From Cupriavidus necator (GTDB taxonomy: Bacteria; Pseudomonadota; Gammaproteobacteria; Burkholderiales; Burkholderiaceae): DNA of 32,000 nucleotides. Of the stretch, positions 3,912 through 18,420 are shown in pieces (the stretch's first letter is position 1; each line of letters opens with the position of its first letter). A model generated the notes under the pieces. The model was not told the origin of the DNA, did no database searches, and saw only the letters and a list, made by a program, of their open reading frames with translations. The stretch lies in NCBI RefSeq assembly GCF_016127575.1, contig NZ_CP066020.1, forward strand, positions 210,001-242,000, in the 5' to 3' direction. The translations under genes were made by a program, and so were the position numbers.

Positions 3912-4487
3912 TCAGGCCGCAATGACGTATTGCCAAAGCGCCATTGCGCCAACGTTCACGGCGACAGTGCCCCAGAACGAAACTTGGAACTCCCGTTTCC
4001 GGTTCTTGTGTCGAAGCAGGTGCTGGGCCGCAAGCGCGCCCGGCCAACCGCCGCAGAGCGCCAGTAGGTGCAGGGTGGTCTCAGGCGTGCGCCACGTGTT
4101 TCGGCTGGCCCGCGTCTTGTCGTCTGCGTAAGCGGAGAACGTAATGATGCTGGCCAGGAGGCTGACAATGCCGGCCTGTCGAGGGAAATAACCAACCAGG
4201 GCGCCGCCGACGATGAACCCCAAGGCCGCCAGACCTGCGAGCACCGGCAAAGGGCTCGCGTCTGACCGCGACTTCGGTGCACCGACGATTGCAACGTTCA
4301 GGGCTTGAATCCGGCCGTCCTTCCCTTTGCCAAGCTCGAAGCTCACGCGGTCACCAGGTGTCGGCGTCACGGCGCGTGTTTGTAGCGCTGTGACGTGAAA
4401 GAAGACATCCTTCATGTCCGCGTAGACGTCGATAAAGCCAAAGCCCTTGTCTGCATGCCACGTCTTGACCTGACCTGCTTTTTTCAT
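3912..4487 (-). CDS. Cold-shock domain plus DUF1294 membrane-domain protein
   Basis: The N-terminus MKKAGQVKTWHADKGFGFIDV...DVFFHVTAL is a classic CSD (KGFGFI, VFFH). The C-terminal half has hydrophobic helices and the LLALCGGWPGALAAQHLLRHKNRK stretch typical of DUF1294 as I recall it. Confidence 0.85.
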   Translation of the reverse strand: MKKAGQVKTWHADKGFGFIDVYADMKDVFFHVTALQTRAVTPTPGDRVSFELGKGKDGRIQALNVAIVGAPKSRSDASPLPVLAGLAALGFIVGGALVGYFPRQAGIVSLLASIITFSAYADDKTRASRNTWRTPETTLHLLALCGGWPGALAAQHLLRHKNRKREFQVSFWGTVAVNVGAMALWQYVIAA

Positions 4488-6093: not shown

Positions 6094-6759
6094 TCACTCC
6101 ATAGCATGAAGCCAGGAAACTGTAGCGCCAACATGCGTCGCCGGAACCCATCTGCCTATCGCACGCTTGACAGAACCGGAGAATCCGACCGTATCTGCGA
6201 CCGAAGGCACTATCTGCTGGATCCCATCTGATATTGGAATAGCACGTTCGAGTAATTTTGAGCTTTCTTTATCGCCCTCGACCACCACTAGCTTGTCCTC
6301 ACGTTGCACGCGACGAAAGTGGGCATTGTTCAGGTGCGATGAGATGGCTGGTGGCCACGGAAGCTCCGGGCTCATTGCATGAACGGCATGGACTACGAAG
6401 TAGCCGATTACACAGCAAGTACCGGTTGTGATGCCATCCCCCTGGAAGCCCGCATAGAAAACAAGATAGTCGCCACGATTCAGGGTTAATAGCTGGGAGC
6501 GCTTTGGATGACTAGGCTCCCCATAGCTGTAGGTGACGAACTCCGGGTCGTAGTGAGCCGGCGCATCCAGGCCAATGACTTGCGCGAGGGTGCTGCCCCG
6601 TCGCGACGGAATGTCGCCGTATCTAAGGGCATTGTGTACTGGCGCTCCTTCAGGAATAGGCACGTATTCAAAGCTGCGATCGGCTTCAATAGGAGATAGC
6701 CGACCGCCGCATCCACGGTCGATTCCTACGCGCAGGAAGAGAATTTTGGTTTCTGACAT
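6094..6759 (-). CDS. Hypothetical protein, downstream gene of a two-gene cassette; possible Nmad3-like family (unverified recollection)
   Basis: The ATG at 6759 gives MSETKILFLRVGIDRGCGGRLSPIEADRSFEYVPIPEG. The G-x-D-x-x-x-GG...SPI...PIP pattern recalls a widespread uncharacterised family. The ORF is long and clean with non-shadow amino-acid composition, in a visibly A/T-richer segment. It overlaps the upstream gene's end by 34 nt. Confidence 0.6.
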   Translation of the reverse strand: MSETKILFLRVGIDRGCGGRLSPIEADRSFEYVPIPEGAPVHNALRYGDIPSRRGSTLAQVIGLDAPAHYDPEFVTYSYGEPSHPKRSQLLTLNRGDYLVFYAGFQGDGITTGTCCVIGYFVVHAVHAMSPELPWPPAISSHLNNAHFRRVQREDKLVVVEGDKESSKLLERAIPISDGIQQIVPSVADTVGFSGSVKRAIGRWVPATHVGATVSWLHAME

Positions 6760-7250
6760 TTTGCTGAGAAAACCTGTGTAGCGCAATGAGACTGTTTCGT
6801 ATCGATTTTTCCTTTACCCAGCGCTGGCGAGGGGGGCGCGTCATGCGCAAGATGCAGGATAGCCTTCAGTTCCGCATACATATCTTCGAACACACTGTCA
6901 GATATGATGACGCGTCGATTTGTTTTCAGCATATGCCCATAAAGCAGCGGGTAGTCCGACTGAAGCAATGGCCCGTGCTCGTTGAGCAGAATGAAACGCT
7001 CAAAGGCCCATATCGCGTGCCCTTTGGGACTGACGCCGCACGCTTTCCTGCTTATCCCAACCCAATTCACTTTCTTCGCTATTCCTTCGTCGCCAGGCCA
7101 CGGGCTTACTCCTCCAATACCGATTACGTGGTTGAAGCTCCAGTCCCGTACCGATCCCATGCAGTCATTGCATCCAAAGAGGCCGCTTTCGTTGGGGTCA
7201 CCCGTATGGGTTCTTTTGTAGATGAGAATTCTTGGTCTGCTCTCCGGCAT
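6726..7250 (-). CDS. Hypothetical protein, upstream gene of the two-gene cassette
   Basis: The ATG at 7250 gives MPESRPRILIYKRTHTGDPNESGLFGCNDCMGSVRDWSFNHVIGIGGVSPWPGDEGIAKKVNWVGI. Composition is balanced and the region is A/T-richer. I recognise no family. Confidence 0.6.
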   Translation of the reverse strand: MPESRPRILIYKRTHTGDPNESGLFGCNDCMGSVRDWSFNHVIGIGGVSPWPGDEGIAKKVNWVGISRKACGVSPKGHAIWAFERFILLNEHGPLLQSDYPLLYGHMLKTNRRVIISDSVFEDMYAELKAILHLAHDAPPSPALGKGKIDTKQSHCATQVFSAKCQKPKFSSCA

Positions 7251-14528: not shown

Positions 14529-14987
14529 ATGGTCGCTGCAACGAAAGCAACGAAGGTCAGTGCAGTCTCGAAGAACAAGTCTGCCGCCAAGAAGGTGGCC
14601 GTGCCAACGAAAAAGGCCAGCGTGCTCGCGCGTGAGGCTCAGGCGGCGAAAAAGCGCTTGCTGAAGCTGCGCGCCGACATGAAGAAGGCCATTGAGGCAG
14701 CAAAGCGCGAAGTTGCGCAGGCAGTGGAAGCCGCCAGGTCCGCGCTTCGCTTCGAGAAGCAAGCCGCAAAGGACAAGCTGGCGGCGAAGAAGGCAAAGGC
14801 TGCGGACGCCAAGAAGGCCGCGGGCAAAGTGGCCGCCACGAAGGCAGCCCCGAAAAAGGCAGTGACCGGTACCAAAGCCTCCGTGAAAGCTGCGCCGAAG
14901 AAGGCCGCAGTGAAAGCCGTGACGAAGAAGCGGACTCCCGCAAAGGCAGTGGTGCCGACCGTGGCGACACCCGAAGTTTCGGCGTGA
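14529..14987 (+). CDS. Histone-H1-like Lys/Ala-rich nucleoid-associated protein
   Basis: The 152-aa protein is dominated by AKK/KKA repeats (KNKSAAKKVAVPTKKAS...AAKKAKAADAKKAAGKVAATKAAPKKAVTGTKASVKAAPKKAAVKAVTKK) around a central helical segment. The overlapping minus-strand ORFs are Cys/Arg/Gly-rich shadows. Confidence 0.6.
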   Translation: MVAATKATKVSAVSKNKSAAKKVAVPTKKASVLAREAQAAKKRLLKLRADMKKAIEAAKREVAQAVEAARSALRFEKQAAKDKLAAKKAKAADAKKAAGKVAATKAAPKKAVTGTKASVKAAPKKAAVKAVTKKRTPAKAVVPTVATPEVSA

Positions 14988-15151
14988 TTTTGGCCTCGGC
15001 CGGTATGGCACTTCGCCGACCGGTCGATGACCGAAGATGGGCGCACAGCTTGCGCCAAGCCTGCTCGACTGAGTCGTGTATCGAGCCATTAGCTCAGCAA
15101 ATTAGAGGCAAGTTGTGCGAACATCAGGGTAGAATTTCGCGCGACGTTATA

Positions 15152-15239
15152 GGGCCGGACGCCGTGTTGGTTGCAGGCAGCGGACTCATAATCCGCCGGA
15201 GACATCCCACCGTGGGTTCGAATCCCACCCGGCCCACCA
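15152..15239 (+). tRNA. Class-II-type (long variable arm) tRNA with anticodon CAU; CCA encoded
   Basis: My manual fold of the 88 nt is:
- Acceptor stem GGGCCGG/CCGGCCC (7 bp).
- A8 C9.
- D-stem GCC/GGC (3 bp).
- D-loop GTGTTGGTTGCA, which contains the GG.
- A26.
- Anticodon stem GCGGA/TCCGC.
- Anticodon loop C-T-CAT-A-A.
- 15-nt variable region CGGAGACATCCCACC (GGA/TCC mini-stem).
- T-arm GTGGG-TTCGAAT-CCCAC.
- Discriminator A, then CCA. Confidence 0.75.
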
Positions 15240-15678: not shown

Positions 15679-16772
15679 TTACATGTCGTCTCGTGTCATA
15701 TCGCAAATCCAAGGGAAGACTTCAGTATGCCAGACAGGTCCACGGAACAAGTCATAGTGAGTACAACCGGCAATCGTGACCAGTCGCCTGTCGTGCGCGG
15801 ATAGGCCTCGGCACAGGTCATGCGCGGCGTGGGTCTGCCCGCGGCCGGATATGTCGTCGAGCTCGCCTTCGATGGTAAGCAAGGCGGTGGAACGGATGTC
15901 CTGGGGACGCACCAACTGACCTCGCACTCGCCAGGTGCCAAAGGCGATCTGAAACTCCTGAAACACGGTCCGAACCGTGTCGAGATAAAACTCGGCGGCC
16001 ATGTCGAGCACCGCGCTGTAGTCCAGCAATGCTTGCCAGTGAACATTGGCTCGCTCGGCATCGCCACGAGCAAGGTTTGCCCAGTACCCTTCACATAGGC
16101 CCCATAGCGGTGATGACTGCGCAGCGGCGAGACCGGAAAGTTGCACAAAACTCGGACAGACCTGACGTCCAGCACCTGCATAGGGATGCGGCACTGGGTA
16201 AACCAGATTGCGTCGGAACCACTGGATAGAGCGGCTCGAGGCGAGGCGCCCAATTGCAGTGGGGCTGCGACGCGCGTCAATCGGACCGCCGATGAGAGTC
16301 AGGCTGGTTGGCGTCGCCTCATCGCGGCTTGCCAACAGCGCGATGGCGCCATTGCTCCAGTCAGTGACATAGACAATGTGCTCTTGCAGTAGCGATTGCA
16401 CCACGTCGCGAAGCATGACGGCGTGATGCCCGGCAAGCGGCGCACAGACGAGTACCGCGGGAATCCCTTGCTGCCCGTTATCATGCCCAACCGCTGGGGC
16501 AGCTTCAAAGCGCAGCAGGCGGCAAAAAGGGCTTTCCGATACGAGTTGCTCGACCACGGGAACAACACGGCCGTCACGAAGGATAGCGGTAACGCCAAAC
16601 GTCGGTTCCTCGCTGGCCGTGCTCAAGCGATACAGGTTTTCCCAGCAGGCGGCCAAGTTCCCGGCCCCCGGAAGATATGCAAGTGGACTAGAGGGCTGAC
16701 CAAGGCTCGGGCAGATTCATCCGCCCACGCCTTCATCAGGGTCCGCTGATATTCAAAAATCTGATAGAGCAT
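15679..16772 (-). pseudogene. phaZ: Intracellular PHB/PHA depolymerase (PhaZ-type) relic with a frameshift and an internal deletion
   Basis: The 325-aa ORF (15679-16656) carries PhaZ-type blocks: GGPIDARRSPTA, LDMAAEFYLDTVRTVFQEF, TIEGELDDISGRGQTHAAHDLC. The expected N-terminus MLYQIFEYQRTLMKAWADESARALVSPL starts at 16772 in a different frame. Only about 10 residues separate VYVTDW from the LLASRDEATPTSLTLIGGPIDAR block, where characterised PhaZ has several tens of residues including the nucleophile box (from memory). Confidence 0.7.
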
Positions 16773-18108: not shown

Positions 18109-18420
18109 ATGGCAACTTACAAAGAACTGATGGCGCAGAAGGCAGCTCTGGAGGCGCACTTGGAAGAGGCACGTGCGAATGAAGTCGCCTCTGTCATCGA
18201 GCAGATTCAGAACCTGATGGCGGAATACGGGCTGACTGTCGAAGACGTTACCAAACGCCGTCGTGGTCGTCCTGCCGGCAGCGGCGCTGGTAAGGCGAAA
18301 GCGGGATTGCCCCCGAAATACCAGGATCCGAAGACGGGCAAGACCTGGTCTGGCCGCGGTCGTGCGCCGTCCTGGCTTGGCAAGAACCCTAACAAGTTCC
18401 TGATTGCAGAAGAGGCGTAA
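18109..18420 (+). CDS. H-NS-family nucleoid-associated protein (Bv3F-like)
   Basis: MATYKELMAQKAALEAHLEEARANEVASVIEQIQNLMAEYGLTVEDV is a coiled-coil oligomerisation region. It is followed by RRRGRPAGS and the C-terminal DNA-binding motif KYQDPKTGKTWSGRGRAPSWL. An AAGGAA RBS precedes the ATG. Confidence 0.85.
   Translation: MATYKELMAQKAALEAHLEEARANEVASVIEQIQNLMAEYGLTVEDVTKRRRGRPAGSGAGKAKAGLPPKYQDPKTGKTWSGRGRAPSWLGKNPNKFLIAEEA

Follow-up and report, generated by a model that had tools for sequence, protein, structure and literature searches.

The 32,000-nt stretch of Cupriavidus necator DNA analyzed in this study (hereafter the window) is identical to part of the C. necator H16 megaplasmid pHG1 (NC_005241.1:178857-210856), and it carries a tRNA gene that joins a CAU anticodon to the long variable arm of a class-II tRNA. 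With a probability of roughly 70%, sequence comparisons lead us to read this gene as a class-II variant of tRNA-Ile2, which would serve as a TilS substrate, receive isoleucine from IleRS and decode AUA. This reading is built on the structure of the tRNA, its conservation and covariation, its synteny, its pattern of identity elements, the AUA bias of the replicon and the linkage to tilS in relatives. Textbooks confine long variable arms in bacteria to tRNA-Leu, tRNA-Ser, tRNA-Tyr and tRNA-Sec. The open-access papers searched described neither a class-II tRNA carrying CAU nor a class-II tRNA-Ile2, and the latter is most likely a previously undescribed architectural type. The gene and its parts are as follows.

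15152-15239, forward strand: class-II tRNA gene of 88 nt, anticodon CAU, encoded CCA (ARAGORN, Rfam, minimum free energy cloverleaf, covariation)
15159-15165, forward strand: A8 (15159), C9, the D-stem 5' strand GCC, G13 and U14 (15165), with the swapped 8:14 tertiary pair (sequence)
15187-15189, forward strand: anticodon CAT in the loop CTCATAA (15185-15191), C34 being the predicted lysidine site (ARAGORN, anticodon at position 36)
15197-15211, forward strand: 15-nt variable region, composed of C, a 3-bp stem GGA/TCC with loop GACA, and CACC (family-wide pair switches)
15236-15239, forward strand: discriminator A73 and encoded CCA end (sequence)

The only tRNA called by ARAGORN in the window was 15152-15239 on the forward strand, with anticodon CAT and the label tRNA-Met, which is given by the anticodon. 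The same segment matched the Rfam tRNA family (RF00005) over its full length (1-71) with 48.5 bits (gathering score 29, E = 1.3e-7), and the best family within the clan was tRNA, not tRNA-Sec. In the ViennaRNA minimum free energy (MFE) structure, the molecule folds into a cloverleaf with a 3-bp variable-arm hairpin (-40.3 kcal/mol, z = -2.7). The 7-bp acceptor stem GGGCCGG/CCGGCCC is followed on its 5' strand by A8 and C9, the D stem has three base pairs (GCC/GGC) and a G13.A22 apposition, and the D loop UGUUGGUUGC supplies U14 and the conserved G18G19. The anticodon arm consists of 5 bp (GCGGA/UCCGC) with the loop CUCAUAA, and the T arm of 5 bp (GUGGG/CCCAC) with the conserved loop UUCGAAU (TTCGAAT in the gene). 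Parsed by domain, the 5' half reads GGGCCGG/AC/GCCG-UGUUGGUUGC-AGGC/A/GCGGA-CUCAUAA-UCCGC and the 3' half C-GGA-GACA-UCC-CACC/GUGGG-UUCGAAU-CCCAC/CCGGCCC/A/CCA. The initial annotation, made from the sequence alone, had described a well-formed class-II tRNA with a CAU anticodon, an architecture outside the textbook set, and every feature it listed was recovered by ARAGORN, by Rfam (48.5 bits) and in the MFE cloverleaf. The structural oddity of the molecule therefore stands, and the interpretation offered with it is partly supported, as detailed below. Assignment as tRNA-Sec or as an allo-tRNA, for which an acceptor/T domain of 13 or 12 bp (8/5, 9/4, 8/4 or 9/3) and, in tRNA-Sec, a long D stem would be expected, was ruled out by the canonical 7/5 geometry together with the 3-bp D stem.

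The pHG1 gene belongs to a conserved family. A pattern scan of one genome per species (at least 120 loci), combined with loci from a plasmid BLAST search, yielded at least 73 copies of the 88-nt class-II tRNA with at least 21 distinct sequences, distributed over Paraburkholderia, Ralstonia, Trinickia and Cupriavidus and also present in Burkholderia species. Full-length copies occur on eight other Cupriavidus megaplasmid records (plasmid BLAST; loci L002-L008), and the pHG1 copy is identical to three Cupriavidus copies (L004, L046, L108). The tRNA body is nearly invariant; A8 and U14 are constant in all 73 listed copies and are kept in a distant 92-nt relative on an uncultured phage-like contig (L013), which differs in all stems. 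Across the family, all three pairs of the variable-arm stem switch between GGA/UCC, UCC/GGA and UCA/UGA, the T stem switches between GUGGG/CCCAC and GUCGG/CCGAC, and the anticodon stem between GCGGA/UCCGC and GUGGA/UCCAC. Among 19 distinct members, L013 included, 437 of 437 stem cells are paired and nine pairs have changes on both sides, a degree of covariation reached by none of 500 shuffles. Complete pairing and covariation show that selection acts on the 8/14 arrangement as well as on the cloverleaf and its long arm. The structure is real and selected, not junk, as had been proposed from the compensated appearance of A8:U14, and the search for related copies and covariation suggested at the same time had a positive outcome.

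The position of the family on chromosomes was examined by clustering the open reading frames around the 73 listed copies and by fetching chromosomal contigs via RpoD homologues. The class-II tRNA follows dnaG-rpoD on the same strand in 55 of the 73 listed loci, and 96-143 nt separate it from the end of the rpoD frame; these 55 comprise every listed Paraburkholderia, Ralstonia and Trinickia locus with enough flank, and the other 18 lie on a Cupriavidus plasmid or plasmid-type contig or have the copy at the locus edge. The annotated order in E. coli is dnaG, rpoD, mug (opposite strand) and a tRNA-Ile(CAU) with the ileX sequence. On a B. cenocepacia replicon (mislabelled as a plasmid), dnaG and rpoD are followed 143 nt on by a 79-nt class-I tRNA-Ile2, which was experimentally shown to be a TilS substrate (Muraski et al., 2025). 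A 79-nt class-I tRNA-Ile2 begins 11 nt after rpoD in the chromosomes of C. necator and C. metallidurans, and the slot holds a 76-nt class-I tRNA-Ile2 in the R. solanacearum complex. Therefore, one slot holds a CAU tRNA throughout the bacterial family: Burkholderia sensu stricto, Cupriavidus and R. solanacearum have the class-I form there, and Paraburkholderia, Trinickia and the R. pickettii group have the class-II form. The initial annotation had conceded that a standard, universally present tRNA of the clade would overturn its view; the class-II tRNA proved to be the rpoD-linked standard in Paraburkholderia, the R. pickettii group and Trinickia, and it is not a universal class-I tRNA. We also considered whether the B. 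cenocepacia tRNA-Ile2 of a 2025 Journal of Biological Chemistry study was the same molecule, an idea raised by its 11-nt D-loop, G3-C70 and G51-C63, and rejected it on the supplement, which shows a 79-nt class-I tRNA.

None of the Cupriavidus class-II copies is beside rpoD; all are on megaplasmids or plasmid-type contigs. The pHG1 copy belongs to a module in which other plasmids have a class-I Ile2-type tRNA, and it is flanked by the following features.

14529-14987, forward strand: "H1-like" gene, upstream member of the H1-like - tRNA(CAU) - H-NS module (annotation)
15107-15146, forward strand: candidate promoter block with a -10-like TAGAAT at 15130-15135 (inferred from flank alignment)
15679-16626, reverse strand: truncated polyhydroxyalkanoate depolymerase gene (PhaZ fragment), between the tRNA and the H-NS gene (Pfam PF06850, annotation)
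18109-18420, forward strand: H-NS family gene, downstream member of the module (annotation)

The H1-like protein of pHG1 has 152 amino acids and is rich in Ala (46) and Lys (34). Its homologues lie directly upstream of plasmid tRNAs of both kinds, class-II and class-I Ile2-type, and H-NS homologues lie downstream of the tRNA in L002, L084 and L136-L140. The class-II tRNA is the one carried by the module in pHG1, pMTS1, a contig of Cupriavidus sp. amp6 and L036, whereas pMTS2, pENH92 and L138-L140 have a class-I Ile2-type tRNA in its place. The class-I sites, with tRNAs 86-92% identical to B. cenocepacia tRNA-Ile2, are those of pMTS2, pENH92, the C. oxalaticus X32 plasmid, a second place in pMTS1 and C. 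necator C39 p1. Given the rpoD slot and the plasmid module, there are two unrelated loci at which the class-II CAU tRNA and class-I tRNA-Ile2 can take each other's position. Both kinds are found together on pMTS2 and pRK1-1, where the class-II gene is about 170-180 nt downstream of repA. The PhaZ fragment retains the PHB_depo_C domain only (PF06850, residues 123-322) and is context without a part in tRNA function. The neighbourhood is thus as first described, with the H1-like gene upstream, the PhaZ fragment downstream, and AbiEii and VapC genes nearby.

Three further observations concern the plasmid module. In C. necator C39 p1 (L140, 6001-6079), a class-I Ile2-type body between H1-like and H-NS genes has the anticodon CTT (Lys) and not CAT, which makes it a copy in decay or else a tRNA whose anticodon has shifted. 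On pENH92 (L137, 930-1006), a class-I CAU tRNA of 77 nt agrees with the class-II tRNA in acceptor stem, T stem and A8, while its variable loop is of the ordinary 5-nt kind and position 14 is A14; it scores 43 bits as Ile2 vs 23 bits for the alternative, and may be an intermediate or a recombinant between both architectures. Plasmids pMTS2 (L136) and pENH92 also encode their own RpoD paralogue of 677 amino acids, 54-61% identical to chromosomal RpoD, near the class-I Ile2-type tRNA, the H1-like and H-NS genes, Ku and LigD.

The identity elements of the pHG1 tRNA point in the same direction as its position. The acceptor stem agrees with R. solanacearum tRNA-Ile2 at 12 of 14 positions and with Burkholderia and Cupriavidus tRNA-Ile2 at 10 of 14; the counts are 4/14 for B. 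cenocepacia tRNA-Met and for a Cupriavidus tRNA-Leu, and 6-8/14 for tRNA-Ser. The T stem matches that of R. solanacearum tRNA-Ile2 at 10/10 positions and the anticodon stem that of C. necator tRNA-Ile2 at 9/10, and the loop CUCAUAA (A37, A38) is the same in the tRNA-Ile2 of E. coli, B. cenocepacia, C. necator and R. solanacearum. Besides the CAU anticodon and this loop, the molecule shares A73, C4-G69 and C5-G68, which are TilS and IleRS elements in E. coli, with E. coli and B. cenocepacia tRNA-Ile2 (ileX/ileY, k2C34-AU). Its acceptor, T and anticodon arms approach those of the Burkholderiaceae tRNA-Ile2 genes, its family shares the location downstream of rpoD, and it resembles B. cenocepacia tRNA-Ile2 in G3-C70, a pair that is needed by B. 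cenocepacia TilS (BcTilS) and sets tRNA-Ile2 apart from tRNA-Met in that organism (Muraski et al., 2025). Unlike tRNA-Ile2, it is 88 nt long; its variable arm has 15 nt vs 5 nt, its D stem is of 3 bp and includes G13.A22, A8:U14 replaces U8:A14, C21 replaces A21, and U12-A23 and G16 are lacking; the class-I architecture as a whole (4-5-nt variable loop, 4-bp D stem, U8:A14) is absent.

An extra elongator tRNA-Met, wholly or partly, would result if C34 stayed unmodified and MetRS charged the tRNA via CAU and A73, with AUG being read. The ARAGORN label, taken from the anticodon, agrees with this, MetRS accepts E. coli tRNA-Ile2 that lacks the modification (review), and a fraction of the tRNA could stay unmodified since BcTilS is slow (published). 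Three determinants of the bacterial MetRS acceptor set, C3-G70, U4-A69 and A5-U68 (listed with G2-C71 and CAU), are however replaced by G3-C70, C4-G69 and C5-G68; the acceptor match to B. cenocepacia tRNA-Met is low, the family occupies the ileX slot, and MetRS orthologues including BcMetRS discriminate against their own tRNA-Ile2 (published). Profile hidden Markov models built from published Ile2/Met pairs gave the pHG1 tRNA 24.2 bits as Ile2 vs 12.9 as Met, and 15.8 vs 9.6 bits after removal of the Burkholderiaceae sequences; leave-one-out controls were right in 14 of 15 cases, and the small size of the models makes this modest evidence. On balance, we regard a role as tRNA-Met as improbable.

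Consistent with an assignment to tRNA-Ile2, two distant loci have a tilS gene about 0.9-1.2 kb away from a class-II CAU tRNA. In L013, the tRNA is about 0.9 kb from a gene for a 307-amino-acid protein that passes the curated NCBIfam cut-off for TilS (TIGR02432, 116.1 bits, cut-off 93.6) and has E. coli TilS as a structural-database match (PDB 1ni5, E = 2e-20); genes for an RNA ligase of phage type and for HNH endonucleases are on this contig as well. In L091, a Saccharibacteria contig, an unrelated class-II CAU tRNA is about 1.1 kb from a TilS gene (149 bits). Such linkage would be expected if class-II CAU tRNAs are lysidine substrates, although it is no proof of function.

The core of the molecule, with its D stem GCCG...AGGC, D-loop layout and long arm, resembles tRNA-Ser and not tRNA-Ile2, and it had been suggested that LeuRS or SerRS, which are blind to the anticodon, could charge the class-II body and insert Leu or Ser at AUG or AUA, as mistranslation or recoding. 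The long variable arm, the tRNA-Ser-like D stem and loop, variable arm and T arm, and A73 as a key LeuRS determinant (review) would suit such charging, and natural allo-tRNAs do combine Ser identity with non-Ser anticodons (PMC7609411). Serine is nevertheless disfavored by A73 in place of G73 and by a variable-arm stem of 3 bp vs 5-7 bp in the Ser tRNAs compared: A73 is compatible with Ile, Met, Leu and Tyr and not with Ser, and a Leu-to-Ser identity switch requires A73 to become G73 (review of identity elements). For leucine, A73 is present and U14, G15:C48 and U20a stand where E. coli LeuRS needs A14, A15:U48 and A20a. The acceptor stem is Ile2-like and not Leu- or Ser-like, the T and anticodon arms are of the tRNA-Ile2 type found in the bacterial family, tilS linkage is seen in L013 and L091, and a mistranslating tRNA would hardly become fixed and near-invariant in the essential rpsU-dnaG-rpoD neighbourhood of whole genera. 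We regard charging with Leu or Ser as very unlikely.

Two known groups of tRNAs help to place this combination. Allo-tRNAs and selC*-type tRNAs have a long variable arm with anticodons outside the Leu, Ser and Tyr sets, features shared by the pHG1 tRNA, and some are on mobile elements (Mukai et al., 2017, via PMC7609411). Allo-tRNAs have 8/4 or 9/3 acceptor/T geometry and a G73 Ser identity and insert Ser whatever the anticodon, whereas the pHG1 tRNA has 7/5 geometry, A73 and Ile2-type acceptor determinants. The nev-tRNAs of nematodes are class-II bodies with Gly or Ile anticodons that keep the LeuRS determinants and are leucylated. The pHG1 tRNA likewise joins a class-II body to a class-I-isotype anticodon; unlike the nev-tRNAs, it has Ile2-type determinants and no A14, A15:U48 or A20a.

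Considering the above comparisons, we propose a plausible model for tRNA-Ile2 function on this scaffold. The transcript would carry C34-A35-U36, and the host TilS would recognize the anticodon loop together with G3-C70, C4-G69 and C5-G68 and convert C34 to lysidine. IleRS would then charge the lysidine-bearing tRNA with isoleucine, so that AUA and not AUG is read. The remodelled core (A8:U14, G15:C48, U20a, C21) probably preserves the L-shape and could at the same time remove elements that LeuRS would need to mischarge a class-II tRNA with A73; that A8:U14, G15:C48 and U20a may keep LeuRS off is a hypothesis drawn from published identity rules. In Paraburkholderia, the R. pickettii group and Trinickia, the class-II gene is the chromosomal occupant of the ileX slot, while in Cupriavidus the chromosome keeps the class-I tRNA-Ile2 and megaplasmids such as pHG1 bring a class-II extra copy. 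The latter plausibly adds AUA-decoding capacity for accessory genes richer in AUA.

Codon usage is compatible with such a benefit. In the 24 complete annotated genes of the window, AUA accounts for 23 of 5,982 codons (3.8 per 1000, 9.6% of Ile codons), compared with 0 of 7,374 codons in chromosomal samples of C. necator, C. metallidurans and R. solanacearum (Fisher p = 9e-9), a chromosomal sample that is small and biased towards conserved, well-expressed genes. In the similarly GC-rich B. cenocepacia, AUA occurs genome-wide at 0.6 per 1000 (published). Because AUA is more frequent in the window, an additional plasmid-borne AUA decoder would be a reasonable benefit. In this respect the gene resembles the codon-usage-complementing tRNAs of jumbo-phage arrays and mycobacterial plasmids, being on a mobile replicon and directed to a host-rare codon (3.8 vs about 0-0.6 per 1000), and close relatives of it sit in phage tRNA arrays. 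It differs from phage and plasmid arrays in that the pHG1 copy is a single gene and the family is a fixed chromosomal gene in the core tRNA-Ile2 slot of several genera.

Apart from the bias of the codon sample, several points weigh against the assignment to tRNA-Ile2. Lysidine formation, isoleucylation, expression, the benefit to AUA supply and the role of U14 against LeuRS are all steps that we infer. The core elements of E. coli IleRS are absent, with C12-G23 and not U12-A23, U16 and not G16 (C16 in other family members), and G29-C41 and not C29-G41; these elements are not universal, because the B. cenocepacia tRNA-Ile2 tested also has G29-C41. The D and variable arms are Ser-like at 14 of 18 positions vs Ile2-like at 14 of 19, and the top BLAST matches among ordinary tRNAs are tRNA-Ser. 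BcTilS depends partly on the D-loop of its own tRNA-Ile2 (Muraski et al., 2025), and the class-II D-loop shares only UGCU-GGUU with the 11-nt D-loop of Burkholderia and Cupriavidus tRNA-Ile2. The survey covered individual loci, and a class-I tRNA-Ile2 may exist elsewhere in the genomes of Paraburkholderia and R. pickettii, where the class-II tRNA could then have a different role. Since the C. necator chromosome already has a tRNA-Ile2, the pHG1 copy may be dispensable, and a simple scan revealed no consensus sigma-70 promoter or terminator beside it.

These last two points would also suit a pHG1 copy without a role in translation, be it a leftover att site, a duplicate in decay, or a toxin substrate or decoy (AbiEii/MenT-like, VapC), the first and last of which had been raised in the initial annotation. 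A tyrosine recombinase is encoded in the window, and the annotated AbiEii and VapC genes are 7.6 and 15 kb from the tRNA. The idea of an attachment site received support elsewhere in the family: a 27.6-kb circular Paraburkholderia element, also found in IMG/VR, has the 3' 58 nt of the tRNA (attP) adjoining a tyrosine integrase, and six further genomes (L028, L062, L107, L114, L119, L121) contain 3' fragments or copies truncated at the 5' end. The class-II tRNA gene is thus demonstrably a recurrent integration site. On pHG1 itself, however, the tRNA is intact with all stems paired, is identical in L004, L046 and L108, and is preceded by a conserved block, seen when the flanks of 16 Cupriavidus copies were aligned, whose TAGAAT precedes the mature 5' end by 16 nt and which is common to the Cupriavidus "group 1" copies with the same variable arm. 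No direct repeat of its 3' end was detected in the window (28-mer with up to 3 mismatches; 16- and 22-mers with up to 2). The toxin proposal fared worse, as an AbiEii homologue is near no other copy and a VapC homologue near a single truncated copy only, the conserved neighbours elsewhere being rpoD/dnaG or the H1-like and H-NS genes. A copy without a part in translation therefore seems unlikely to us.

Repeated integration at this gene makes integration a plausible route by which a class-II tRNA could have replaced a class-I tRNA-Ile2. In a broader proposal, the class-II A8:U14 body would be an adaptive redesign spread by phages and plasmids or, as a rarer alternative, LeuRS or SerRS charging would recode AUA or AUG. 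Under a redesign, decoders of A-starting codons (Ile2-CAU, Lys-CUU/UUU, Asn-GUU) would differ structurally from host tRNAs, which could let them evade tRNA-targeting nucleases and toxins of hosts or competitors with correct charging kept, and in Paraburkholderia, the R. pickettii group and Trinickia the class-I tRNA-Ile2 downstream of rpoD would have given way to a mobile tRNA via integration. We offer this as a speculation of low probability.

AUA decoding in Paraburkholderia, the R. pickettii group and Trinickia, which are large and well-studied genera, thus seems to be the task of a class-II tRNA whose 8:14 pair is inverted, and this tRNA also travels on Cupriavidus megaplasmids and on phages. 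If the assignment to tRNA-Ile2 is correct, TilS and IleRS would work on a class-II scaffold. The family would then offer a natural experiment on how LeuRS and SerRS are excluded, for example via U14, G15:C48 and A73. tRNA annotation would be affected too, given that the relatives examined in cultured phages are labelled by anticodon alone and ARAGORN reports tRNA-Met. For synthetic biology, pHG1 would be worth considering when AUA-containing genes are expressed in C. necator H16. The gene also exemplifies a core tRNA locus repeatedly remodelled by integrating elements.

Related tRNAs were also encountered in viral sequences. Full copies of the family are present on IMG/VR contigs, some of them in tRNA arrays that also hold an ordinary class-I CAU tRNA. 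Cultured jumbo phages carry class-II tRNAs of 86-89 nt with class-I-isotype anticodons (Lys CUU/UUU, Asn GUU), namely Xanthomonas phage X1, Caulobacter phage CcrBL9, Serratia phage BF and Pseudomonas phage OMKO1 (L162-L165). Their similarity to the class-II CAU tRNA is 76-82%, and their annotation reads simply tRNA-Lys or tRNA-Asn; the discriminator is G73 in Asn, A73 in two Lys tRNAs and U73 in the Lys tRNA of CcrBL9, and most match the anticodon isotype. In a Terricaulis tRNA array (L116), an 86-nt tRNA-Lys(CUU) adjoins the class-II CAU tRNA, and all these anticodons of the jumbo phages and L116 read A-starting codons.

Two observations bear on integration at tRNA genes. In one R. pseudosolanacearum strain (L144; CP168737.1, about 6380-7000), the tRNA-Ile2 behind rpoD is split by an element with its own tRNA-Ile(CAU): the native gene is cut off after CTCATAATCG, and the incoming tRNA, of Burkholderia/Cupriavidus type, is itself split behind U33, where a few hundred nt have been inserted (GGACT|TAGCAAG...GGTAAG|CATAATCC), probably a group I intron of the Azoarcus tRNA-Ile kind. 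A filamentous prophage of Cupriavidus neocaledonicus STM 6070 was reported to integrate in a "tRNA-Met" (PMC10011098); the class-II CAU tRNA of this strain is on a 6-kb scaffold (L079) and may be that integration site.

Several features of pHG1 may be added. In the window, genes for nucleoid- or nucleic-acid-binding proteins are the H1-like gene (14529-14987), the H-NS gene (18109-18420) and a gene for a cold-shock/DUF1294 protein (3912-4487), at least four toxin-antitoxin sets or components are present (ParDE, AbiEii with a helix-turn-helix partner, a RelB/DinJ-family antitoxin, VapC), and two SNF2/DEAD-type helicases are encoded. BLAST with the tRNA as query found a second matching place elsewhere in pHG1, outside the window; a table in a genome paper gives 3 tRNAs on pHG1, and the H16 RNA-seq paper leaves out tRNA genes.

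Unrelated class-II CAU tRNAs with ordinary U8/A14 occur in tRNA arrays of Hyphomonadaceae, Caulobacteraceae and filamentous cyanobacteria, with loci in Alphaproteobacteria (L022, L029, L035, L065, L102, L116, L122) and mostly in Cyanobacteria (L061, L069, L072, L074, L099, L111, L117, L125, of which L111 is an unclassified metagenome-assembled genome). The cyanobacterial arrays also hold tRNA-Leu(CAA/UAG) genes of 73-75 nt, the size of class I. In Verrucomicrobiota and Kiritimatiellia, 3' tRNA-fMet-like fragments with an inserted hairpin, which ARAGORN did not recognize, follow the pattern ACTCATAATCCCGC...GCGGGA...GGTTCAAATCC...CGCAACCA and lie a few hundred nt from a normal tRNA-fMet (L012, L020, L058, L067, L080, L092, L115).

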